From NCBI GenBank assembly GCA_963974535.1, contig CAXBCN010000006.1:21007-85006 (forward strand): a stretch of DNA of 64,000 bases. Direction: 5' to 3'. The position numbers and the translations under genes are program-made. This DNA is from an uncultured Cellulophaga sp. (GTDB lineage Bacteria > Bacteroidota > Bacteroidia > Flavobacteriales > Flavobacteriaceae). The notes below the pieces were generated by a model that searched no databases, was not told where the DNA came from, and saw only the letters and a list, made by a program, of their open reading frames with translations. Below, piece after piece: positions 18,801 to 50,035 of this stretch. Numbering within the stretch: the first letter of the stretch is position 1; every line of letters starts with the position of its first letter.

Positions 18801-21800
18801 TGGTAACTGTTTCTATTGAAAAAGATAGGAAAATCATCGAGACTAAAATTGTGAAACTATCGCGTAATTCGGAAACACTGACAATGCCTGTACATAAGGA
18901 CGATTTAGGCGGGTTTGCGGTAAACTATAGTTTCTCCGCTTTTAATTATTTTCAATCTAATTCTATAGTGGTTCCTGTACCCTATGCCCCGACAGCCTTA
19001 GAAATTGAAACCCTAACTTTTCGTGATAAGTTACAACCAGGCACCGATGAAACCTGGTCGTTTAAAATAAAAGGTACACAAGGAGATCAGGTTGCGGCTG
19101 AACTTTTAGCGAGTATGTATGACGCTTCTTTAGACGCTTTTAAACCACATAATTATAGTTTTCATCCCTTATACCAGCCCTATTATTATTCAAACCGCCG
19201 GAGTAATGCTAACCACAGTTACGGTATCGATACCTTTAATACGTACTGGAATTTCGGCAATGGCTATGATTACAAACCACAATACTATGATGCTTTTGAT
19301 TGGTTTGGATTGCAGTTTGGGAATTCTTACTATGCCTATGGCCGCACACGCAGTACGGCAAAAAATATGGTTTATGAAATGTCCTCAATGGTTGTAGAAG
19401 ATAACGTTGATATGGAAATAACTGACGTCGATTTCTCTGGTGCTCCAGCTCCTGAAAATAGACAAGAAATTATTCCTTTAGAAAATGACTCCATCAAAAT
19501 CACGTCTAAAACCGATTTCGACGATATCAAAATCCGAAAAAACCTGCAAGAAACCGCTTTTTTCTTTCCGCAATTACAAACTGACACAGCTGGAAATGTC
19601 TCGTTTAATTTCACCACACCAGAGGCCTTGACCAAATGGAAGTTGCAGTTGGTAGCACATACCAAAGACCTGGAAAGTGCTACCCGAACCTTGCAAACGG
19701 TGACCCAGAAAGAGTTGATGGTAATACCAAATGCACCTCGTTTTCTAAGAGAAGGCGACCAGATCGTTATTCGTTCTAAAATTGCTAACCTCACCGACAA
19801 AATTTTAAATGGAGCTGCCAAATTAGTACTGACAGACGCCCTTACCAATAAAGAAATTAACGGCTTAATTTCAGGAAGTGAGCAAAAAGAATTTACCGTG
19901 GATGCTACTGGCAATACGCAAGTTTCTTGGACCCTTAGTATTCCGGAAGGTTTGCAGGCGGTACAGTATAAAATAGTAGCCAGAGCAGGCGATTTTAGTG
20001 ATGGAGAACAAAATGTTTTGCCTGTTTTAACCAACAGAATGTTGGTGACAGCGTCTTTACCTATGTGGGTGCGTAGCAATCAAACCAAAACCTTTAGCTT
20101 AGATAAGTTGAGAAATATGTCGACTGAGCCCAATAACCAGACTTCGCTCAGCCTCCATAAGTTGACCTTAGAAATAACCTCCAATCCGGCATGGTATGCG
20201 GTACAAGCACTACCCTACTTAATGGAATACCCGTACGAATGCAATGAGCAAACCTTTGCCCGGTATTATGCCAATAGTTTGGCTAGCTATGTTGCGAATA
20301 GCAATCCTAGAATCCAAGAAGTCTTTAATCAATGGGCTACTACCGACGCTATGCTAAGCAATCTTGAAAAGAACGAAGAATTAAAATCGATTTTAATTCA
20401 AGAAACACCTTGGTTGCGTGATGCACAATCAGAAACGGAACAGAAAAAACGTATAGCACTGCTTTTTAACATGAATAAAATGAAAGCAGAACAAGCAACG
20501 GCCATAAAAAAATTAGAGCAAAATCAACTCTCCTCCGGGGCTTGGGCTTGGTTTGCTGGCGGTAAAGAAAATCGGTATATCACACAACATATTGTTACTG
20601 GTTTGGGGCATTTAGATAAATTGACTTCTAAGCTACTCGATCCAAGCTCGGTGGCTGAAAAAGCTCAAAGTCAAATGATTGAAAACGCTATTTCGTATTT
20701 AGACGCTGAATTTATTGCTGAATATGAGTATATGAAAAAGCGTACGACCAACCTGAATAACGATCATTTGAGTACCATGCAAGTCCATTATTTATATATG
20801 CGAAGCTTTTTTAAAGACCTTAAACCGTCTAAAAAAGTCGCTGAAATTACGGCTTATTATCAAGGACAGGCTCAGCAATACTGGAAAAATAGAGATTTAT
20901 ATACCCAAGGGATGCTTTCCTTGGTATTGCATCGCATGGATGACACCACAACTGCCAATGCTATTATCAAATCTTTAGATGAAAACAGTATTACCAGCGA
21001 AGCCTTAGGCATGTACTGGAAAGAAAATACCAACTCTTGGTATTGGTATCAAGCACCTATAGAAACGCAAAGTTTATTGATTGAAGCCTTTTCTGAAATT
21101 CAAAATGATCTGGCTACAATTGATAATTTAAAAATATGGTTGTTGAAAAATAAGCAAACTAACCAGTGGAAAACCACAAAAGCTACTACTGAAGCTGTCT
21201 ATGCGCTTCTATTACAAGGTAGCGATTGGTTGTCGGTTACTGATGCCGTTGAAGTTTTAATAGGTGGAGAAAAATTAAATGCCTCCAAACTAGAAAATGT
21301 AAAAATAGAAGCAGGCACTGGCTATTACAAAACCTCTTGGAATAAAGATGAAATAAAGCCTAAAATGGGCGAAATTGAAATGAGTAAAAAAGGAAATGGC
21401 ATTGCTTGGGGCGCTTTACACTGGCAATATTTTGAGGACTTAGATAAAATCACCTCGTCGGAAACACCCTTACAACTAAAAAAGAAGTTATTTCTTAAAA
21501 AAAATACCGCCACAGGAGAACAGCTCAGCGAAATAAGCTCTCAAACAAAACTCAATCTTGGCGATTTAGTTCGAATACGAATTGAATTGCGGGCTGATCG
21601 TGATATGGAGTTTATTCACATGAAAGATATGCGCGCTGCTGGTTTTGAGCCCATCAATGTATTGTCTCGCTACAAATGGCAAGATGGTTTAGGCTACTAT
21701 GAAAGCACAAAAGACGCCAGTACCAATTTCTTTTTTGATGATCTCCCCAAAGGCGTCTATGTTTTTGAATACGATGTACGGGTAAATAATGCAGGAGAAT

Positions 21801-39618: not shown

Positions 39619-42468
39619 ATGAGGACAGACGTGTTTGCATCACGCCACATTGGCATCAGAGAAGAAGATCTTCAACACATGTTAGAAAAAGTGGGCGTTG
39701 AAAATCTAGAACAATTAATTTACGAAACCATTCCTACCGATATTCGTTTAAAAAATCCGCTGAAGCTAGAAGCAGCCATGAGCGAAAACGAATTCTTAGA
39801 ACATATTCAAAAACTTTCAGAAAAAAATAAAGTTTTTTCTACCTACATAGGTTTAGGGTATCACGAAAGTATTACCCCCTCGGTGATCAAGAGAAATATT
39901 TTTGAAAATCCGGGATGGTACACCGCATACACGCCTTACCAAGCTGAAATTGCACAGGGTCGTTTAGAGGCTTTATTGAATTTTCAAACCATGATCTGTG
40001 ACTTAACAGGCATGGAGTTGGCAAATGCGTCACTTTTAGATGAAAGTACAGCTGCTGCCGAAGCCATGACGATGCTTTTCGAAGTGAGAAGTAGGGATCA
40101 AAAGAAAAATAACATAAAGAAGTTCTTTGTTTCTGAGGAGTTATTACCGCAAACCAAATCACTTTTAAAAACAAGAGCAGTTCCTTTAGAAATTGAATTG
40201 GTTATTGGCAATCACGAAACCTTTGATTTTAGCAGTGATTTCTACGGCGCTATTTTACAGTATCCAGGAAAACACGGTCAAATTCACGACTATCAAGGCT
40301 TTGTGACTAAAGCTAAAGACAATGATATTAAAGTAGCGGTTGCTGCTGATATTTTAAGCTTGGTGCTTTTGCAAGCACCTGGTGAATTAGGCGTTGATGT
40401 GGTTGTCGGGACAACGCAACGTTTCGGAATTCCATTAGGATATGGTGGTCCTCATGCGGCATTTTTTGCCACAAAAGAAGAATATAAAAGAAGTATTCCT
40501 GGACGTATTATTGGTCGTACAATTGATACCGATGGTAACCCTGCACTCCGTATGGCCTTACAAACCAGAGAACAACATATTAAACGTGACAAGGCAACAT
40601 CAAATATTTGCACTGCTCAGGTTTTATTAGCTGTTATGGCCAGTATGTATGCCGTATACCACGGACCTAAAGGATTAAAATATATTGCTAGCAAAGTGCA
40701 TGCTTCAGCAGCAACACTGACTGATGCTTTAGAAAAGTTAGGGATATACCAAGCAAACAGCGCATACTTTGATACCATTACCGTTAAAGCAGACGCTAGT
40801 TTGGTAAAACCAATAGCAGAGCAACACGAAATAAACTTTTTATACAGTGAGGATAATAGCATCTCTATTTCGCTGAACGAAGCTACATCGCTACAAGATT
40901 TACAGGATATCATCAGTGTTTTTGCAAAAGCATTAGGAAAAGATGTTGTTCCCATAGACGACTTAACAACGGCCACTGCAATTCCTTCGAATTTAGCACG
41001 AACCACGCCTTTCTTAGAAAACGCAGTTTTTAACTCGTATCATTCGGAGACACAAATGATGCGTTATATCAAAAGGTTAGAGAATAAAGATCTAGCTTTA
41101 AACCACTCAATGATTTCTTTAGGTTCCTGCACCATGAAATTAAATGCAGCTACCGAAATGTTGCCTTTGGGTTCTGCGCAATGGAGCAACATACACCCAT
41201 TTGTTCCTGTGGAACAAGCAGAGGGGTATCAAATTATGCTTGCTGAATTAGAAAAAGATTTAAACGAAATAACTGGTTTTGCAGGAACATCATTGCAACC
41301 TAATTCTGGAGCTCAAGGTGAATATGCAGGCTTAATGGTAATCCGAGCTTACCATGAATCTAGAAATGACGCACATAGAAACATCTGTTTAATTCCTGCT
41401 TCTGCTCATGGTACCAACCCTGCTTCGGCTGTTATGGCTGGAATGCAAGTTGTGGTTACCAAAACAGATGAAAAAGGAAATATTGATGTTGCAGACTTAG
41501 AAGAAAAAGTAGCGAAGCACTCCGATAATTTAGCGGCTTTAATGGTCACCTACCCTTCTACACATGGTGTTTTTGAATCATCAATAAAACACATTACCCA
41601 ATTAATTCACGATAACGGTGGTCAAGTGTATATGGATGGTGCCAACATGAATGCTCAAGTAGGACTAACAAATCCTGCCACTATTGGGGCTGATGTATGT
41701 CACTTAAATTTACACAAAACCTTTGCTATTCCCCATGGTGGTGGTGGCCCAGGTGTTGGCCCTATCTGCGTGGCGAAACAACTGGTTCCATTTTTACCTG
41801 GAAATCCGATTATAAAAACAGGGGGGGACCAAGCAATAACGGCTATTTCTGCTGCTCCATGGGGTAGCTCTCTAGTGTGCTTGATTTCTTATGCCTACAT
41901 AAAAATGTTAGGTGAATTTGGACTGAGACACTCTACCGAAATTGCGATTTTAAACGCCAATTATATCAAACACAGATTGAGTGGTAATTTTGAAGTTTTA
42001 TATACTGGAGAAAAAGGTAGAGCTGCACACGAAATGATTATCGATTGCCGACCCTTTAAACAAAACGGGATTGAAGTTACTGACATTGCAAAACGCTTAA
42101 TGGATTATGGTTTTCACGCACCAACAGTATCTTTCCCTGTGGCTGGAACCGTTATGATCGAGCCTACAGAAAGTGAAGGTTTGTCAGAATTAGATCGTTT
42201 TTGTGATGCCATGATTAGTATTCGCAAAGAAATTAATGAAGCTACAGAAGGTGATGCTGATAATGTGTTAAAGAACGCACCACATACACTAAAAATGGTA
42301 ACCAATGATGCTTGGAATTTTCCATATTCTAGAGAAAAAGCAGCTTTTCCTTTGGCCTTTGTTAGTGAAAATAAATTTTGGCCATCGGTTCGTCGTGTTG
42401 ATGATGCTTATGGGGATCGTAATTTAATTTGTACCTGCGCACCTATCGAAGCGTATATGGAAGCTTAA
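39619..42468 (+). CDS. gcvP: Glycine dehydrogenase (decarboxylating), P protein
   Basis: [40 protein letters not shown]. Confidence 0.99.
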
Positions 42469-42492
42469 GAAGCTAATAAAATCAATATACAC

Positions 42493-42526
42493 AAGCCCCT
42501 TTACCATCATGGAGGGGCTTTTTTTT
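42493..42526 (+). terminator. Rho-independent terminator after gcvP
   Basis: AAGCCCCT...AGGGGCTT stem followed by a T-run. Confidence 0.85.
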
Positions 42527-42636
42527 GCGCTAAGCACACCTTAAACAGCCCTTGAACATCATGTTATTTGCTATGCATGCATAATAGTTGTTTCAATTTT
42601 TAATATCTTGCCATACCTTATCACAATACCAAAGCA

Positions 42637-43695
42637 ATGAAAATCGGAATTACTGGAACAGGCTCATATATACCCGCTGTTTTAACTAAAAATTCAGCGT
42701 TTAATCATCACCAATTTTTAAATGACGATGGCACTCCCTTTGCCTATGAAAATGAGGTAATTATAGAAAAGTTTAAAGCCATTACAGGGATCGAAGAGCG
42801 CAGGTATGCCCCAAATACCTTAAACACCTCAGACATGGCTTTTTATGCTGCCGAAAAGGCGATTGCAGATGCCGGTATCGACAAAGAGACTTTAGATTAT
42901 ATTATTTTTGCTCATAATTTTGGCGATGTTCATCACGGCCAGTCGCAAGGAGACACCTTACCCAGTTTAGCGACCCGAGTAAAACACCATTTAAAAATTA
43001 AAAATCCAAAATGCGTCGCCTATGATATTCTTTTTGGCTGCCCAGGTTGGATAGAAGGGGTCATACAAGCTTACGCCTTTATCAAAAGTGGTCTGGCCAA
43101 AAAATGTTTAGTGATTGGCGCTGAAACCCTTTCTCGAGTCGTAGATCCATACGATCGCGATTCTATGATTTATTCTGACGGTGCTGGGGCTACCATTATT
43201 GAAGCTTCAGAAGCCAATGGTGAAATTTTAGCCCACGCTTCTGCCACCTATGCCTTTGATGAAGCTAATTTTTTATTCTTTGGGAAATCATATGCCCAAA
43301 ATGACAACAGCGGTACGAAATACATAAAAATGCACGGTCGTAAAATCTATGAATTTGCCGTAACAAATGTGCCCAAAGCCATGAAAGAGTGTTTGGATGC
43401 CAGTGGACTTGCCATTACCGATGTCAAAAAAATATTCATTCATCAAGCCAATGAAAAAATGGATGAAGCCATCGTAAAACGGTTTTACAAAGCGTATGGC
43501 ATGGCAATGCCTGAAGGTATTATGCCCATGAATATTAAAGAAAATGGGAATAGTTCCGTAGCCACCATCCCTACCCTTTTTGATATGGTTAAAAACGGAA
43601 AATTAGCCCCACATAGCGTCACTAAAGGAGATGTTGTTATCTTTGCAAGTGTTGGTGCAGGAATGAACATCAACGCTATTATTTACAGGTACTAA
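42637..43695 (+). CDS. fabH: 3-oxoacyl-ACP synthase III (FabH family)
   Basis: GTGSYIP, FGCPG catalytic Cys, DGAGA, IHQAN, GNSSVA, GAGM. Confidence 0.88.
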   Translation: MKIGITGTGSYIPAVLTKNSAFNHHQFLNDDGTPFAYENEVIIEKFKAITGIEERRYAPNTLNTSDMAFYAAEKAIADAGIDKETLDYIIFAHNFGDVHHGQSQGDTLPSLATRVKHHLKIKNPKCVAYDILFGCPGWIEGVIQAYAFIKSGLAKKCLVIGAETLSRVVDPYDRDSMIYSDGAGATIIEASEANGEILAHASATYAFDEANFLFFGKSYAQNDNSGTKYIKMHGRKIYEFAVTNVPKAMKECLDASGLAITDVKKIFIHQANEKMDEAIVKRFYKAYGMAMPEGIMPMNIKENGNSSVATIPTLFDMVKNGKLAPHSVTKGDVVIFASVGAGMNINAIIYRY

Positions 43696-43708
43696 TTTTT
43701 TTATTTAC

Positions 43709-44233
43709 ATGTACGAAAATACGTTTCCGAACACGCGTTTTAAGCACACCTTAGCATTTCTTCAAAAGCATATAGCGACTTCTGAATCTATTTTAGATTT
43801 AGGTGTTGAAAATCCATTTACAAAAATAATGGTCGCCAACCACTATGAGGTAGCGAACACACATGGCGAAGATTTAGATTTTGATTTCTCCAGTGTTATT
43901 GCTTCCGATGCCAAGGTGGTAACGGCTTTCGAAATTTTTGAGCATTTACTCGCTCCTCTTAACGTATTACGTGAAATAAAAGCAGATAAATTAGTCGCTA
44001 GTATTCCCTTGCGCTTATGGTTTTCACCCGCCTATCAAAGTAAAACCGACGCTTGGGATCGGCATTATCACGAGTTTGAAGATTGGCAATTCGACTGGCT
44101 TTTAGAAAAAGCAGGTTGGAAAATTATCGACCGTACTAAATTCACCAACCCCGTCAATAAAATAGGCCTGCGCCCTTTACTTCGAAAAGTTACGCCAAGA
44201 TACTACTTGGTGTATGCGGAGCGCATGCCCTAA
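43709..44233 (+). CDS. Short class I SAM methyltransferase-like protein
   Basis: ILDLG, FEIFEHL, HYHEF motifs. Confidence 0.65.
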   Translation: MYENTFPNTRFKHTLAFLQKHIATSESILDLGVENPFTKIMVANHYEVANTHGEDLDFDFSSVIASDAKVVTAFEIFEHLLAPLNVLREIKADKLVASIPLRLWFSPAYQSKTDAWDRHYHEFEDWQFDWLLEKAGWKIIDRTKFTNPVNKIGLRPLLRKVTPRYYLVYAERMP

Positions 44234-44268
44234 TTTTGGTTCAGCTTCTTTTTTGTTACTTCTAGAAT

Positions 44269-44341
44269 ATATAACATATGTCAGATATATCTTAAATTAG
44301 CAGTATAAAGAACATATGTTTTATATACTATTGTTAGCGAC
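44269..44341 (+). repeat. attC-like element 0 (hairpin ending in core GTTAGCGAC)
   Basis: ATATAACATATGT (44269-44281) / ACATATGTTTTATAT (44312-44326) imperfect inverted repeat, then TTGTTAGCGAC (44331-44341). Confidence 0.55.
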
Positions 44342-44367
44342 AAGCGACCAAAAAACAATGTAACTAC

Positions 44368-45015
44368 ATGAAAATAATTGAACAATTACTATTCTTCATT
44401 TCTTGGACAATAATTATAGGCTTATCAGTTTATTTTCTTCTGGAAAATGTAGGTGTTTATTTTACTGGATATAGAAGTGATAGTTACATTAACAACCCGA
44501 TTTGGGTAAGTTCCCACTTAATAGGTGGAACATTAGCATTACTATTTGGCCCCATACAATTCTCTAAACGGATTAGAAACAAATATTTGACTTTTCACAG
44601 ACTGACAGGGAAAATTTATATCATTGGAGCATTTATAGCAGGTTTATCGGCGATTAGGCTTTCACTAATTAGTTCTTGCTTGCCTTGTAGAGTTTCACTC
44701 TTCATTTTAGCTATTTTGGTCCTTTTTACTACTTTTTCAGCTTGGTGGTGCGTAAAAAATGGAAATATCAAAGCACATCAACAATTTATGGTTCGAAGTT
44801 ATATCTGCATACTTTCATTTGTAGCTGTAAGAATTGGAGGGATTATTCCTTTGGACTTTTTATTTGGACAAATTGAAGACCCAACATTTGGCAGAACTGT
44901 AAATGAGTATTTCTTTTCATTTGTCCCAATAATTTGTGGTGAAATATTTATGATTTGGATTCCAACATTAAAAAATATTAAAAGAAAAAAAAGTCGAATT
45001 AATACCAGTCGCTAA
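44368..45015 (+). CDS. DUF2306-like membrane protein
   Basis: SHLIGGTLALLFGPIQF...FHRLTGKIY, HQQFMVRSY; about 6 TM. Confidence 0.8.
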   Translation: MKIIEQLLFFISWTIIIGLSVYFLLENVGVYFTGYRSDSYINNPIWVSSHLIGGTLALLFGPIQFSKRIRNKYLTFHRLTGKIYIIGAFIAGLSAIRLSLISSCLPCRVSLFILAILVLFTTFSAWWCVKNGNIKAHQQFMVRSYICILSFVAVRIGGIIPLDFLFGQIEDPTFGRTVNEYFFSFVPIICGEIFMIWIPTLKNIKRKKSRINTSR

Positions 45016-45525
45016 CAAAGAACTGAGGTAAAAAACAACTCTTTTCTTCATTGAAGTAAGACACAATATTTAGGCTCATAGTTTCATTAAACTGATTCTT
45101 TGAGCTTTTTTAATTAGATTTTTTTCTAGTTATTTGGGTACCCTAATCTGATCATTTCCGTAGCTTTTTTTACAAAATGAATAGCACTATCTAAGAGTCT
45201 TAATAACTTTTTAATTTCCGTTCCACTGTTTTTGAACGGATAGTACTACCTTCTGAACTTGTAACGCTGATCATCAAATGGCCAATGTATATTCTAAAAA
45301 ATTTACTGCCTTAGGTATAGTTAGATGATTTTTGAAAGGACCACCTTTGCATTTTCAAGGACTTAAAATCGAATTCTTAAAGCTTCACAACTGCCGACAG
45401 CTAGGAAACAATACAAAAAAATAAAGTGGTTTTAAATAGGGTCTAAATCAAATCCTCTACGTGTATAGCAAGCTTAATTCTCTCTTTGCTTCTGTCTTGC
45501 TCGTATCTCAATTTAAAGAAAAGCC

Positions 45526-45648
45526 GTGTATAATTCATTGTTAGTTATAGCCTACTAACCGAAGTCTTAACGGACTATATATCTGTAATTTATTTGCTAA
45601 CTTAGTTGCTTAACCCCGCAACTAACCATATACAAATAGGTTGCCAGC
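45526..45648 (+). repeat. attC-like dispersed repeat, copy A
   Basis: Aligns without gaps to 46630-46746; TGTATA/TATACA inverted ends; ends TACAAATAG-GTTGCCAGC. Confidence 0.6.
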
Positions 45649-45679
45649 AATTAAAGAAAACTGAGTTATATATAGAAAA

Positions 45680-46210
45680 TTGAGATATGTAATAGTAGCA
45701 TTTATCACAATTGGCACCTTTGTTTTAAGTTGTAAACAAGACAAAAACAATTCCGTAGTATCTGAAATTGTTGCTACCGAAACAAAGGTAACAGCACCTA
45801 ATCCAGATGAAGAAAAAATAAAAACAACTATCAACAAATTGTTGTTCAATGCTGGAAATTATAATGTTTTGGCATTAGATTCGATGATCTCTGATAAGGC
45901 AATGCTTGGAATAAGCAGTTTAAAAGATGGAACTTGGTCTAATTCAGAAATAGCCATTAACGATTTCTTTGAAAGTGTAAAAAAGATGGAACGTAGTCCT
46001 TACTGTGAGATACCTAATGACTATGACATCATAATTACGAAAGGTCAGTTAGCTTTAGCACGAGCTGATTGCATTCTATACCGATGGGGAATTTCCCAAA
46101 CAAGGGAAATAAACCATTTTACATTCATCAAAGAAAATGGGAATTGGAAAATTCTCAATATATCTTGGACTAAAGAGGAACTTTCTAAAAAAAAAAGAAC
46201 TATGATTTAG
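45680..46210 (+). CDS. NTF2-like lipoprotein (5' part of a frameshifted gene)
   Basis: VLSC lipobox, NTF2-like end FTFIKENGNWKILNISW; stops 14 nt after an A10 run. Confidence 0.75.
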   Translation: MRYVIVAFITIGTFVLSCKQDKNNSVVSEIVATETKVTAPNPDEEKIKTTINKLLFNAGNYNVLALDSMISDKAMLGISSLKDGTWSNSEIAINDFFESVKKMERSPYCEIPNDYDIIITKGQLALARADCILYRWGISQTREINHFTFIKENGNWKILNISWTKEELSKKKRTMI

Positions 46211-46596
46211 AAATCTTTGCTCGTGGATATGCACAAGCTTGGTGTAGTCAAAGACCAAATTTTGTCTCATCCTTTTTCACTGAAGATGGCGTACTACAGA
46301 TCAATGATGGCTCCTCGGCGAAAGGAACTGAAGCGATAACAAATGTTGCTAATGCATTTATGGAGACTTTTCCAGATATGGTTGTTTCACTTGACAGTTT
46401 GACCACCCAATCAGATAAAACACGATTTTATTGGACACTTACTGGAACAAATAAGGGCACCAATGGAACTGGAAATAAAGTTAAAATTAGCGGATTTGAA
46501 GAATGGACTTTGAACAAGGATGGACTAATCCAAGAATCAAAAGGCTATTTTGATCCTAAAGAATATGAGCGCCAATTGAACTTTGGCATCAACTAA
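46189..46596 (+). pseudogene. SnoaL/ester cyclase-like NTF2 domain in the -1 frame (3' part of the split gene)
   Basis: Frame is open from the A10 run (KNYDLEIFARGYAQAWCSQ...FPDM...WTLTGT) with no ATG until 46360. Confidence 0.7.
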
Positions 46597-46606
46597 TCAT
46601 AACTAT

Positions 46607-46746
46607 TACCAACAAAATTACCCTGCATGTAATTAATTGCTTGTTGCTAGACTACTTAAAAAAATGACTGCAAATTCTATATACCACCTATATTTGTAAA
46701 CTTTTATGGGCTATCACACAACTTTTCCTTTACAAAACCGTTAGCC
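46607..46746 (+). repeat. attC-like dispersed repeat, copy B
   Basis: TACCAAC at 46607, shared blocks with copy A at offset 1100, ends TACAAAACC-GTTAGCC. Confidence 0.6.
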
Positions 46747-46780
46747 AAAGCAAAATAACGATAAGAATTTACCTACAACG

Positions 46781-47824
46781 ATGAAACTCTATTCCAGCCT
46801 TTCTAAAATTAGCTTTCTTAAAAAGTATTCCACTAAATTTTTGGCGATTGCGTTCTTAGGGATTCATATTCCGCTCATAGGATTAATTATATTCCTTACC
46901 TATAATGAAGGCGTTTTATCTCCGACAATCATATTGATTTTTACCTTAATTTTTACTTTGGGAGCCACTGCTGTTACTCTATTTATACTTAATAAACTGC
47001 TAGAACCCATTAAGCTGGCTAGAAATTCACTCCAAGCGTATTTAGAAAGTCAAGAGCTTCCTGCTTTACCTATCTATTTCAAAGACGAGGTCGGGGAGCT
47101 TTTAAAAGACCTACAATTTTCTATTGAAGTATTTGACAACCTTATTGATTCTAAACAACAAACAATCGCGATACTATCCCATGACCTTAGAAATCCTTGT
47201 GCGGGAATACTTATGTTAATCGATTTATTAAAGGAAGAAGAAAGCGCTAGCGAAAGAGAAATTATGATGACGAATATTAAATCACTGGCCAAACAGCAAC
47301 TTGCTATCATGGAAAGCACCTTATCTAATCTAAAAAACGAATCTAAAACTCAAGGAAAATTAGAAAAGGTAGCATTAGATTTAAAGAAAATTATTACGGA
47401 AGTCATTAGTTCTCAAAAGGTGGCCTTAGATCAGAAGAAAATCAATTTAGAATTTAATTGTGATTCGGCATTAACCCTACGCGGAAATGAAACTGCATTC
47501 AGGCAAGTGTTCCTTAATTTAATCAACAATGCCATTAAATTTTCCCAAACCGATGGAAAAATTTGGATCAAGGCAGAAAAAACCAAATCGGAAATAAACA
47601 TCGATATTATTGACCAAGGTTTAGGGTTTAAAAAAGAAGTATCAGAAGCCCTTTTTAAACCGTTTACAGAGCATTCTCGTTTAGGCACCAAAGGTGAGTC
47701 TAGCCAAGGAATGGGCTTGTTTATCACAAGAAGGTTCATTAATAAACATTCCGGCACATTAATGGCGAGAAGTGAGGGCCTGAACAAAGGATCAACGTTT
47801 TCCATTCACTTACCACTTACGTAA
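46781..47824 (+). CDS. Orphan membrane sensor histidine kinase (HAMP-HisKA-HATPase)
   Basis: SHDLRNP, NLINNAIKFS, DQGLG, GMGLFI. Confidence 0.92.
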   Translation: MKLYSSLSKISFLKKYSTKFLAIAFLGIHIPLIGLIIFLTYNEGVLSPTIILIFTLIFTLGATAVTLFILNKLLEPIKLARNSLQAYLESQELPALPIYFKDEVGELLKDLQFSIEVFDNLIDSKQQTIAILSHDLRNPCAGILMLIDLLKEEESASEREIMMTNIKSLAKQQLAIMESTLSNLKNESKTQGKLEKVALDLKKIITEVISSQKVALDQKKINLEFNCDSALTLRGNETAFRQVFLNLINNAIKFSQTDGKIWIKAEKTKSEINIDIIDQGLGFKKEVSEALFKPFTEHSRLGTKGESSQGMGLFITRRFINKHSGTLMARSEGLNKGSTFSIHLPLT

Positions 47825-48305
47825 GGCTACCTTGAAGTATCCCTTCATGGTCGCCAACTAAAAAATGCTATAAAAGCAGTTCAATGCTTTATGAATTCAA
47901 TAGGCTAATATTCTAGGCTTATGGCTATATTATCCTGATGCCTTAAGCTTTTTATTAAATTTTTACACAGGAATCTTTAATCTTGTATTATTAAGTTAAA
48001 GGAAGTGTTTAAAGCGCTTCATGGAAAACCTCCTAAATATTCCTTAGCCTGTTTCTTTTTGCTATCTTAGTACAGCCTAACGGTAATAAAGACGGTAACC
48101 TAGGAGATGAATCAACAATTATAGGACTTCTCTTATTAAAGAATTGGATAATTCAGCAACAAAAGTGACATCTTTCGGAATGGCATATATTAAGACTGAA
48201 AAATACTGGCCTTTACGACAGTTTGTTGTAACCGCTAATGAACAAACCTATCGTCATCTTATGGCATCCCTAGTAACAGGTAAACCTTGAGTAAAATATT
48301 ACATT

Positions 48306-48848
48306 ATGGAAAAAGCACTACAAACAATGATTGACAATATGCCTGAAAAAACAGGCAAGTCTTTGAACGAATGGAAAAAAAAATTAAAGACCAAGTCTTT
48401 TGTCAAGCATTCAGAAGCGGTAAACTTTCTTAAAAAAGAATATCAGGTAACGCACGGTTTTGCAAATACCATAGTTACATTGTCTAAAGAGGAGCATACA
48501 ACACCCACCGACCTAGTTGAAAATCAATATGCCGGTAAGGAGAATTTAGTACCGATTTACGAGAGTCTAATAAAGGTGGTTAAATCCTTCGGTGCAGACA
48601 TTACCATTACTCCAAAAAAAACAAGTGTAAGTATCATCAGAAAACGACAATTTGCCTTAATACAACCCGCCACCAAAACCCGTATTGATTTAGGCCTAAA
48701 ATTAAATAACAAACCAACAACCGACCGACTTGAAAATTCAGGCCCATTTGGCACCATGTGTACGCACAGGGTAAAATTGTCTGAGCCTAGTGAGGTAGAT
48801 ACCGAATTAAAAAAATGGCTAAAAGAAGCTTACGAGCAAGCGGAATAA
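48306..48848 (+). CDS. DUF4287/DUF5655-like protein
   Basis: NMPEKTGKSLNEW, THGFAN, PKKTSVS, CTHRVKL. Confidence 0.75.
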   Translation: MEKALQTMIDNMPEKTGKSLNEWKKKLKTKSFVKHSEAVNFLKKEYQVTHGFANTIVTLSKEEHTTPTDLVENQYAGKENLVPIYESLIKVVKSFGADITITPKKTSVSIIRKRQFALIQPATKTRIDLGLKLNNKPTTDRLENSGPFGTMCTHRVKLSEPSEVDTELKKWLKEAYEQAE

Positions 48849-49042
48849 ACACCCAGCCAAAAATTAGAAAAACCATTATTAATTTTAACACGCGCCAAAC
48901 CTTGTTATTCCTTTAAAATTTGCCTCCAATATCAATCAATTAAACCATTACACATCACCGAAACGAAGAGCCGAATTGTACATCACTTATGCTTCTGCAC
49001 TAAACCGTACATTTTGCAAAAACCTTGACCCAATTAAAAATT

Positions 49043-50035
49043 ATGAACCTAATGAAAAATTACCTCTACAGTATTGCTTTTTTAATGCTCTTAATTGGCT
49101 GTAAAAACAATTCTTCTCAAAAGAACATAGCAGTAAATAAAGAACTGTTGTTGTACAATTTAAAGGTACTATCACACGACTCGATGCAAGGCCGATTTTT
49201 TGGCACCGAAGGGAATTATAAAGCCCAAAGATTCATCGCCAAACAATTCGATTCTCTTGGAATAAAACCGGCTTTCGCCTCCGGAAGTATTCAAAAATAC
49301 CCTTACACCTTTTCCGGAGCTTTAAGACAAAGGCTATATCCTATTCTGAATGTATCCGAAGACTTTAGTAAGGTACCAGATACCACCGTAATAGGTGGTA
49401 ATGTGGTCACTATGATTCCAGGAAAAAGTAAAAAGGTGATCGTCATTACCGGGCATTTAGATCATTTAGGCATAAGAGATACCCAAATTTATAACGGTGC
49501 TGATGATAATGCTTCTGGAGCTGCGGCATTACTTAGCATAGCCGATTATTTTAAAAACAAAGCCCCTCAGCATACTCTGATTTTTGCCGCAGTAGATGCC
49601 GAAGAAATTGGGTCTTTAGGAACTGAATACTTACTAAATAATTTTCCATTCCCTTTAGAGAGTATTGCTCTAAATATCAATATGGATATGATTGCGCATA
49701 ATGATTCCTTACAACTGTTTGCTTCTGGCTTGTATCATTACCCCCATTTAAAACAAGCCTTAGATAATTTAAAATCAACGAATATAAACCTGCTTTTCGG
49801 TCACGACAATCCTAATGAAAATGGAGTGTCTGATTGGACTTTTCAATCAGATCACCGCGAATTTCACAAGAGGCAAATTCCGTATATTTATTTTGGTGTA
49901 GAAGACCATAAAGATTATCACAAGCCAACCGACACCTATGACAATAGCACTAAAGATTTCTACGTTGAAGCTGTGCGATTAATTATTGAAACTATCGAAG
50001 CATATGATACCTTTCTTGTAGCTCAAGATAACTAG
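49043..50035 (+). CDS. M28 family peptidase lipoprotein
   Basis: LIGC lipobox; GHLDH, GADDNASG, DAEEIG, NMDM, DYHKPTD. Confidence 0.92.
   Translation: MNLMKNYLYSIAFLMLLIGCKNNSSQKNIAVNKELLLYNLKVLSHDSMQGRFFGTEGNYKAQRFIAKQFDSLGIKPAFASGSIQKYPYTFSGALRQRLYPILNVSEDFSKVPDTTVIGGNVVTMIPGKSKKVIVITGHLDHLGIRDTQIYNGADDNASGAAALLSIADYFKNKAPQHTLIFAAVDAEEIGSLGTEYLLNNFPFPLESIALNINMDMIAHNDSLQLFASGLYHYPHLKQALDNLKSTNINLLFGHDNPNENGVSDWTFQSDHREFHKRQIPYIYFGVEDHKDYHKPTDTYDNSTKDFYVEAVRLIIETIEAYDTFLVAQDN

Follow-up and report, generated by a model that had tools for sequence, protein, structure and literature searches.

Behind fabH and a methyltransferase-like gene in an uncultured Cellulophaga sp. stand four co-oriented open reading frames (ORFs) of unrelated function, encoding a DUF2306 protein, a split NTF2-like lipoprotein, a kinase and a DUF5655-like protein, and the locus raises the question of how such accessory genes came to be strung together at one place. 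It lies in a 64,000-nt stretch of contig CAXBCN010000006.1 (assembly GCA_963974535.1, forward-strand positions 21,007 to 85,006), hereafter the window, whose own numbering is used below. An earlier note on this DNA had listed the same four genes, which ORF calls and Pfam matches confirmed, and had proposed an eroded integron-like cassette array built on a flavobacterial type of attC site and mobilised by a recombinase encoded elsewhere. With a probability of roughly 85%, we read positions 44255-47964 as a short, decaying satellite array of three cassettes belonging to an integron-like gene-capture system of Bacteroidota. This system is common in Flavobacteriaceae and has an Xer-like recombinase in place of the integron integrase.

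The site that defines the cassettes is visible only through cross-genome search. When 7.5 kb around the locus was searched against 30 relatives, stretches at about 44267-44343, 45014-45140 and 45524-45660 recurred many times, often in clusters. Members of the structured repeat of about 146 nt that we call E3 were gathered by iterated nhmmer, and two elements singled out in the earlier note, 45526-45648 and 46607-46746, proved to belong to this one family (98 and 55 bits), while a third that had been grouped with them, 44269-44341, turned out to be a separate element, E1. A covariance model built from 19 copies (R1, alignment A3) recovered two E3 copies in the window, at E 6e-26 and 3.5e-17; run unfiltered over its entire length, it yielded no further E3 site. 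The genome of origin holds about 21 copies by nhmmer, and five complete congeners hold 8 to 40 each by R1, mostly in same-strand clusters. Homologues elsewhere, which the earlier note had anticipated, are plentiful, as R1 matched 118 of the 151 sampled Flavobacteriaceae genera with scores reaching those of the training genus. The expectation that such elements flank single ORFs held as well: a co-oriented ORF starts within 60 nt downstream of 72 of 99 copies (median 16 nt), against 14 of 100 in the antisense control, and a co-oriented stop codon lies within 40 nt ahead of the element in 64 of 100. The cassettes sampled in congeners encode hydrolases, CHAP or DUF3800 proteins, or have no Pfam match. 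In one array of G018, a 415-aa DUF6161 gene (L023 1395-2642) ends exactly at the start of the first E3. Direct alignment of the four intergenic regions of the window had been tried and abandoned (52% column identity, nothing shared), and an Rfam scan of 42000-50000 gave no credible match.

In consensus, E3 opens with 7 variable nt, AAC, A, CC and GTATAT, continues into a branched core whose central hairpin is strong, and closes with ATATAC, about 6 nt, GTT and 7 variable nt, a layout that is attC-like. Of the cells in its named stems, 89-92% are paired, and compensatory changes are present, one GTATAT/ATATAC stem pair occurring as AU in 8, GC in 7 and CG in 1. None of 500 shuffles reached the observed pairing, and slid controls gave 29-43% against 80%. 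As single-stranded DNA, an intact E3 folds into one long imperfect hairpin with an outer 8-bp stem, a 3/6-nt internal loop and an inner stem, with fold z scores of -3.4 on one strand and -4.8 on the other. With this architecture and covariation, and with an R box of 10 bp, E3 is best described as attC-like. On contig C41 of the same genome, an 84-nt short site (L067 2407-2490) has the same end boxes and inner stem around a central hairpin that is simple, so that one architecture is common to several size classes. In the complete chromosomes of G002, G018, G012 and G016, plus-strand copies occupy one part and minus-strand copies another, which hints at an orientation bias with respect to replication, a pattern reported for integron arrays.

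The extent of a cassette is revealed by the boxes at its ends. Across the intervening ORF, the GTT+7 box of one element pairs perfectly with the 7+AAC box of the next in 16 of 50 adjacent pairs and at six or more positions in 23 of 50, compared with 0.66% and 3% of random box pairs; within a single E3 element the boxes pair perfectly in just 2 of 76 cases, and adjacent copies less than 1 kb apart have nearly all perfect boxes. Cassette-wise box pairing of this kind is a trait of integron cassettes. A natural experiment in G016, where one cassette occurs in three copies (L038 1353-2192, 8746-9576 and 11361-12200), places the borders: identity begins at (C)GTTACCACAC, downstream of three different site cores, and stops directly behind the closing GTT of the cassette's own site, with three different cassettes next. 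One cassette in three contexts shows that borders fall at GTT, and therefore that a cassette runs TT-box, ORF, AAC-box, core, G, having its own TT-box at the 5' end because the crossover would fall at G|TT. A cassette is, in other words, one ORF plus a folded attC-like E3, and the 7 nt after the closing GTT are owned by the next cassette. Megablast extension of shared blocks into E3 cores was uninformative, the cores being all alike. The converse assignment, with the E3 core travelling with the downstream ORF and the crossover at AACA|CCGT, was rejected because first cassettes behind a recombinase or docking site have no upstream core, and it was further ruled out by the triplicated cassette, which keeps its site at the 3' end.

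These borders also bear on a different account, in which E3 would be a dispersed structured repeat (similar to a repetitive extragenic palindrome [REP] or a miniature inverted-repeat transposable element [MITE], or a promoter or 5'-untranslated-region module) and arrays would arise by repeat spread and homologous recombination. The position of E3 just upstream of co-oriented ORFs makes a role in expression possible, and the covarying stems could be RNA stems; two further points in its favour are taken up below with the evidence concerned. However, such an account leaves unexplained why cassette-specific boxes pair across an ORF, why identical cassettes are bordered at GTT between unrelated cores, why first cassettes begin at GTT behind a recombinase with no E3 core upstream, and why the same boxes recur behind recombinase homologues in other orders with a differing core. 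We consider it quite unlikely.

Under the cassette-array reading, a recombinase should accompany the sites, and tyrosine recombinases do co-occur with the arrays, in congeners and on contig C41 of the same genome, as the earlier note had envisaged. In G002, G016 and G018, the best match to the integron-integrase (IntI) model immediately precedes an E3 array on its 5' side, in the same orientation; in G012 and G005 it lies about 10-12 kb upstream of an array. The G002 protein (L026 7205-8098, minus strand, 297 aa) reaches 207 bits with both the XerA-type model (cut-off 220) and the IntI model (cut-off 265) and 171 with XerD, and its RHR-H-Y region is conserved. Sixty nt past its stop codon stands GTTGGCAATA, and the complementary box is found at the end of the first cassette. 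Three paralogues are intact in the genome of origin: one on C41, duplicated identically on C28, and one each on C17 and C5. The C41 paralogue, a 368-aa homologue, is followed by GTTAGCTTGC, a 425-aa ORF, GCAAGCTAAC (10/10 complementary) and the 84-nt short site. Of 201 sampled Bacteroidota genomes, 71 contain homologues at 40-55% identity, and such homologues are also found in named Cytophagales, Chitinophagales and Bacteroidales (Paludibacter; uncultured), as well as in one bin labelled Ignavibacteria; behind 80 homologues across Bacteroidota, perfect boxes were found at 28 of 112 ORFs, compared with 0.4% in controls. The array-head genes of G018 (C1:728928-729727) and G012 (C1:3902762-3903537) are frameshifted into frames of 150 to 220 aa, and 21 to 36 sites remain there. 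The C17 paralogue (680-1807, L066) passes the NCBIfam XerA-type model (234.6 bits, cut-off 220), whose product name is 'site-specific tyrosine recombinase/integron integrase'; public annotation may thus hint at integrons with the arrays left unrecognised.

Could the locus instead be the remnant of a classical integron, a strict example of the integrase-less clusters called CALINs, whose ordinary attC sites were moved by a lost or distant IntI? The AAC and GTT boxes, the inner stem, the GTT borders and the single ORF per cassette are all what that origin would give. However, no protein of the genome of origin reached the cut-off of the integron-integrase model (TIGR02249, best 120 bits per segment against 265), none matched at E <= 1e-40 in 21 genus genomes, and whole array-head proteins reach 187-207 bits against the cut-off of 265. 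In two blocks aligned with VchIntIA, the G002 enzyme has 22 residues against 65, and the IntI-specific segment is therefore absent. The enzyme is, moreover, co-oriented with the cassettes rather than divergent from them. For Bacteroidetes, IntegronFinder 2.0 lists just In0 elements and one complete integron, in Salinibacter (PMC9024848), a scarcity that would be surprising had its attC model recognised the abundant E3. A classical origin appears highly improbable to us.

Read with these borders, the satellite array in the window comprises the following features.

44255-44332, plus strand: E1, read as a docking site, a hairpin with arms 44263-44281 and 44312-44330 (17/19 paired)
44333-44342, plus strand: R' box of cassette 1, GTTAGCGACA, as read from the sequence
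44368-45015, plus strand: ORF of cassette 1, an intact 215-aa DUF2306 membrane protein (PF10067, 87 bits)
45008-45017, plus strand: R'' box of the first E3, GTCGCTAAC followed by A, severed from its site by an insertion sequence (IS) remnant
45018-45522, minus strand: IS110-family element with an internal deletion; its right end spans 45018-45138 and its left, non-coding end about 45149-45522
45523-45649, plus strand: first E3, core and R' box (R1 match 45509-45654, 129.6 bits, E 3.5e-25)
45640-45649, plus strand: R' box of the first E3, GTTGCCAGCA
45680-46596, plus strand: ORF of cassette 2, a frameshifted two-domain NTF2/SnoaL-like lipoprotein (SnoaL match in the second part)
46604-46749, plus strand: second E3, degenerate (R1 match 46608-46754, 89.8 bits, E 2e-16)
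46604-46613 and 46740-46749, plus strand: R'' box TATTACCAAC and R' box GTTAGCCAAA of the second E3
46781-47824, plus strand: ORF of cassette 3, an orphan membrane histidine kinase of 347 aa (HisKA and HATPase_c)
47849-47858, plus strand: R''-type box past the kinase, GGTCGCCAAC, which aligns with the R'' preceding every IS right-end copy
47860-47964, minus strand: second IS110-family right-end remnant (nhmmer match 47852-47964, 77 bits)

Only the DUF2306 cassette keeps intact ends: the 11-nt stretch 44331-44341 is the perfect reverse complement of 45008-45018 and together they bracket the gene, whose stop codon sits within the R'' box. The gene is found in just 3 of the 151 family genera, a patchy spread that would fit horizontal cassette transfer. 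A DUF2306 gene 88% identical to it in another genus (G122, L163 1501-2130) lies between weak, divergent AAC...GTT elements (15.7 bits), flanking sites that are suggestive but not clean. In cassette 2, an A10 run (46187-46196) splits the lipoprotein gene into ORFs 45680-46210 and 46360-46596 (-1 frame), which could reflect either decay or slippage, and the flanking boxes are not complementary. The second E3 has an 8-nt insertion past AACA and folds no better than shuffles (z +0.17). The kinase cassette is common to G017, with 85% DNA identity from 46675 onward, and its R''-type box agrees with the upstream R' at 3 of 7 variable positions, no better than chance.

The 0.65-kb gap that follows DUF2306 contains an IS110-family remnant that splits a site. 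Its right end is the sequence past the transposase stop of a full copy on contig C27 of the same genome, and the same right end precedes C-terminal transposase fragments in G012; the left end corresponds by alignment to an intact IS of G018 (L025), whose transposase scores 195.6 bits on NF033542 (cut-off 140). A DEDD transposase (NF033542) and site-specific insertion place these elements in the IS110 family; the copies in the window are without transposase, no transposase match being found there. When the IS was excised in silico, GTCGCTAACA joined to CCGTGTATAATT gave the E3 consensus, the junction of 45017 and 45523 regenerating the AACA|CCGT of the family, and AACA|CCGT is the insertion point in every IS copy examined. 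At the kinase end, the rest of the E3 after the remnant is gone, as it is in G017, which has the same remnant, and there is no E3 downstream; the distal end of the array has therefore been destroyed. A repeat past ORF stops (E2) had been considered as a second site class and was rejected, since tblastn shows it to be the IS110-family right end.

The left ends compared (window 45300-45522, contig C27 [L071] and L025 2133-2319) match the E3 target flank over 8 to 11 nt (CACCGTATATA, CCGTATATAAT and CGTGTATA), and these matches sit in a loop that is closed by a GAGAGGGGATT/AATCCTCTC stem, with TGTTG upstream. To judge from these letters, the left end looks like a bridge- or seek-RNA target loop programmed for the cassette site. 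In a rival account, an RNA-guided recombinase of the IS110 family would itself move the cassettes, with E3 as its programmed target, and both the copies and remnants within E3 sites (window, contig C27, G018 and G012) and the target-flank matches in the stem-bounded loops are in keeping with this. However, the insertion point falls on the 5' side of the site, some 120 nt away from the GTT border, most cassettes have no IS near them, and a tyrosine recombinase rather than an IS heads the arrays, which makes this explanation hardly credible. RNA-guided IS110 elements typically target dispersed repeats, and this habit is one of the two further points that favour the dispersed-repeat account.

In our reading, in which the IS targets the cassette sites, the array begins at E1, and the genes around the array are as follows.

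42637-43695: fabH, the upstream neighbour of the candidate cassette stretch
43709-44233: methyltransferase-like gene, between fabH and E1
48306-48848: DUF4287/DUF5655 ORF, co-oriented with the cassettes and with no site support

E1 is characterised by inverted and direct repeats (DNA fold z -2.4); it holds two AACATATGT(T)-type palindromes 38 nt apart and terminates in ATATAC-TATT directly ahead of the crossover GTT. Wherever E1 recurs in other genomes of the genus, GTT+7 nt and an ORF come after it. The fabH and methyltransferase genes are syntenic in 18 of 18 sampled genus genomes and the DNA behind them is not. At this site, sister species carry different cassettes behind the methyltransferase gene, in line with the differently filled sites that the earlier note had foreseen: DUF2306 in its perfect 11-nt inverted repeat in G000 (the genome of origin), a 164-aa ORF with decayed ends in G017, and a 183-aa ORF with boxes GTTGTGCTGC / GCAGTACAAC, then an E3, in G001. 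Because different cassettes stand behind one gene and E1 copies are followed by GTT+7, we read E1 as a docking site; it is absent from more distant congeners.

The GTT and AAC motifs quoted in the earlier note are all present when the sequence is read directly, and they differ in worth. Bare GTT cores are no evidence in themselves, given that the window has 91 occurrences of GTTRRRY where 145 would be expected and that none of the four quoted cores fits it. By position, the cores at 45640 and 46740 are the 3' boxes of the two E3 copies and that at 44333 lies in the inverted repeat bracketing DUF2306, while that at 48225 found no support. Among the AAC sites, 46611-46613 is the 5' box of the second E3 and GCTAAC at 45011 lies in the inverted repeat, while GCCTAAC at 48075 is unsupported, the actual 5' box past the kinase being GGTCGCCAAC at 47849-47858. 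The DUF5655 gene had been counted as a fourth cassette; the unfiltered model scan of the whole window gave no site there beyond the two E3 copies, and likewise no support for the genes past DUF5655 as cassettes. As for the core of the proposal, an eroded array with a flavobacterial attC type and a recombinase that would be encoded elsewhere, all tests run support it at the level of sequence. The CALIN label holds by analogy (two E3 copies 1.1 kb apart, a split R'', a docking site and no nearby integrase) and fails in that the recombinase is not an integron integrase.

Several observations weigh against our reading. There is no tyrosine recombinase in the window, the sole match on the contig lying outside it at C6:126268, and the paralogue in the same genome that is closest to the G002 array-head enzyme is just 48% identical to it. 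For cassettes 2 and 3, box matching does not exceed chance, and in the wider sample many adjacent E3 pairs more than 1 kb apart are without matching boxes; undetected site classes may lie in between. The E3 copies ahead of the kinase in G000 and G017 share their 3' 80 nt (about 85% identity) and not their 5' 67 nt, so that the exchange point, at about 46675, falls inside E3 (46608-46754 versus L021 2677-2824), which a GTT crossover would not predict. This exchange within a repeat, the other point in favour of the dispersed-repeat account, suggests that homologous recombination between repeats may also reshape arrays. Finally, we infer the recombination activity, the single-strand mechanism and the exact cleavage bond from comparison of sequences.

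In the mechanism we propose, a cassette would leave as a circle, its two boxes closing a hairpin stem, and an Xer/XerA-like recombinase would cut and rejoin at GTT, acting in trans on the array in the window. The reaction would take place on a folded single strand, as in integrons. As for the present state of the array, an apparently RNA-guided IS110-family element targeting AACA|CCGT has split one site and, together with deletion, removed most of the last. Drift has left the second site unable to fold, and the NTF2 gene is frameshifted.

The resemblance to sedentary chromosomal integrons such as the Vibrio cholerae superintegron, with its VCR sites, is extensive. In both, single-ORF cassettes carry an imperfect-palindrome site at the 3' end; the R''-spacer-L''...L'-spacer-R' layout of attC with its conserved AAC and GTT is repeated in E3; the crossover is placed at GTT, a cassette's own boxes pair, and the sites are homogeneous within a family (about 130-146 nt). 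Satellite clusters far from a recombinase, and insertion sequences directed at the sites (as in the IS1111-attC group), are further features shared with integrons and CALINs. In contrast to integrons, the recombinase of these arrays is without the IntI segment and scores below the IntI cut-off; it is co-oriented and directly upstream, with no divergent intI/attI arrangement (the first cassette begins 60 nt past its stop); the R box pairs over 10 bp rather than 7; dispersed hairpin docking sites receive cassettes as well; and E3 sites have apparently not been picked up by integron surveys of Bacteroidetes.

Elements comparable to the IS are known from the IS1111-attC group and from RNA-guided IS110/IS1111 (PMC11187229, PMC11208160), which are likewise DEDD insertion sequences at a fixed position and orientation in cassette sites and, for the RNA-guided ones, have a non-coding end with short target matches. 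They differ in that the target here is the flavobacterial E3 rather than the attC of an IntI, and the copies in the window are dead remnants.

We found no literature description of an E3-type system in Flavobacteriaceae. Of published systems, rAID-1 of gut Bacteroidales comes closest; it combines a XerD-like recombinase with short genes in one orientation and with intergenic repeats that its authors called 'reminiscent of integrons' (Ross et al. 2019, 10.1101/471110; PMC12247911). At least two co-oriented genes with conserved intergenic motifs also make up the recombinase-headed arrays of G002, G016 and C41, and homologues of the flavobacterial recombinase occur in Bacteroidales, with the same GTT/AAC boxes on ORFs behind homologues. 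rAID-1 is defined by its immunity genes and by a XerD-like recombinase at least 44% identical to BF9343_RS08045. Unlike rAID-1, the cassettes in the window (DUF2306, SnoaL, HisKA/HATPase) have no immunity domains according to Pfam and the array has no adjacent recombinase; conversely, the accessible portions of the rAID-1 descriptions contain no folded-site architecture, GTT borders or docking sites.

Taken beyond the family, these features lead us to lean, by a narrow measure, toward the view that Bacteroidota possess their own phylum-wide counterpart of the integron, made up of an Xer/XerA-like enzyme without the IntI domain, folded AAC...GTT sites, recombinase-headed arrays together with docking sites, and specialised IS110 elements. 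If this is true, either integron-type gene capture has two origins or it is older than the IntI domain. Surveys find Bacteroidetes almost free of integrons (PMC9024848), whereas E3 is present in 118 of 151 sampled Flavobacteriaceae genera and the recombinase family in 71 of 201 sampled Bacteroidota genomes; should the proposed mechanism hold, a large pool of accessory genes in marine and gut Bacteroidota would move by an integron-like route that goes unreported in the integron surveys consulted. The rAID-1 arrays, poorly understood so far, would gain a site architecture and a crossover point, and it could be asked how hairpin sites are handled by a recombinase that has no IntI domain. For the Cellulophaga genome itself, the system would account for the differing genes that close relatives carry behind fabH and the methyltransferase-like gene.

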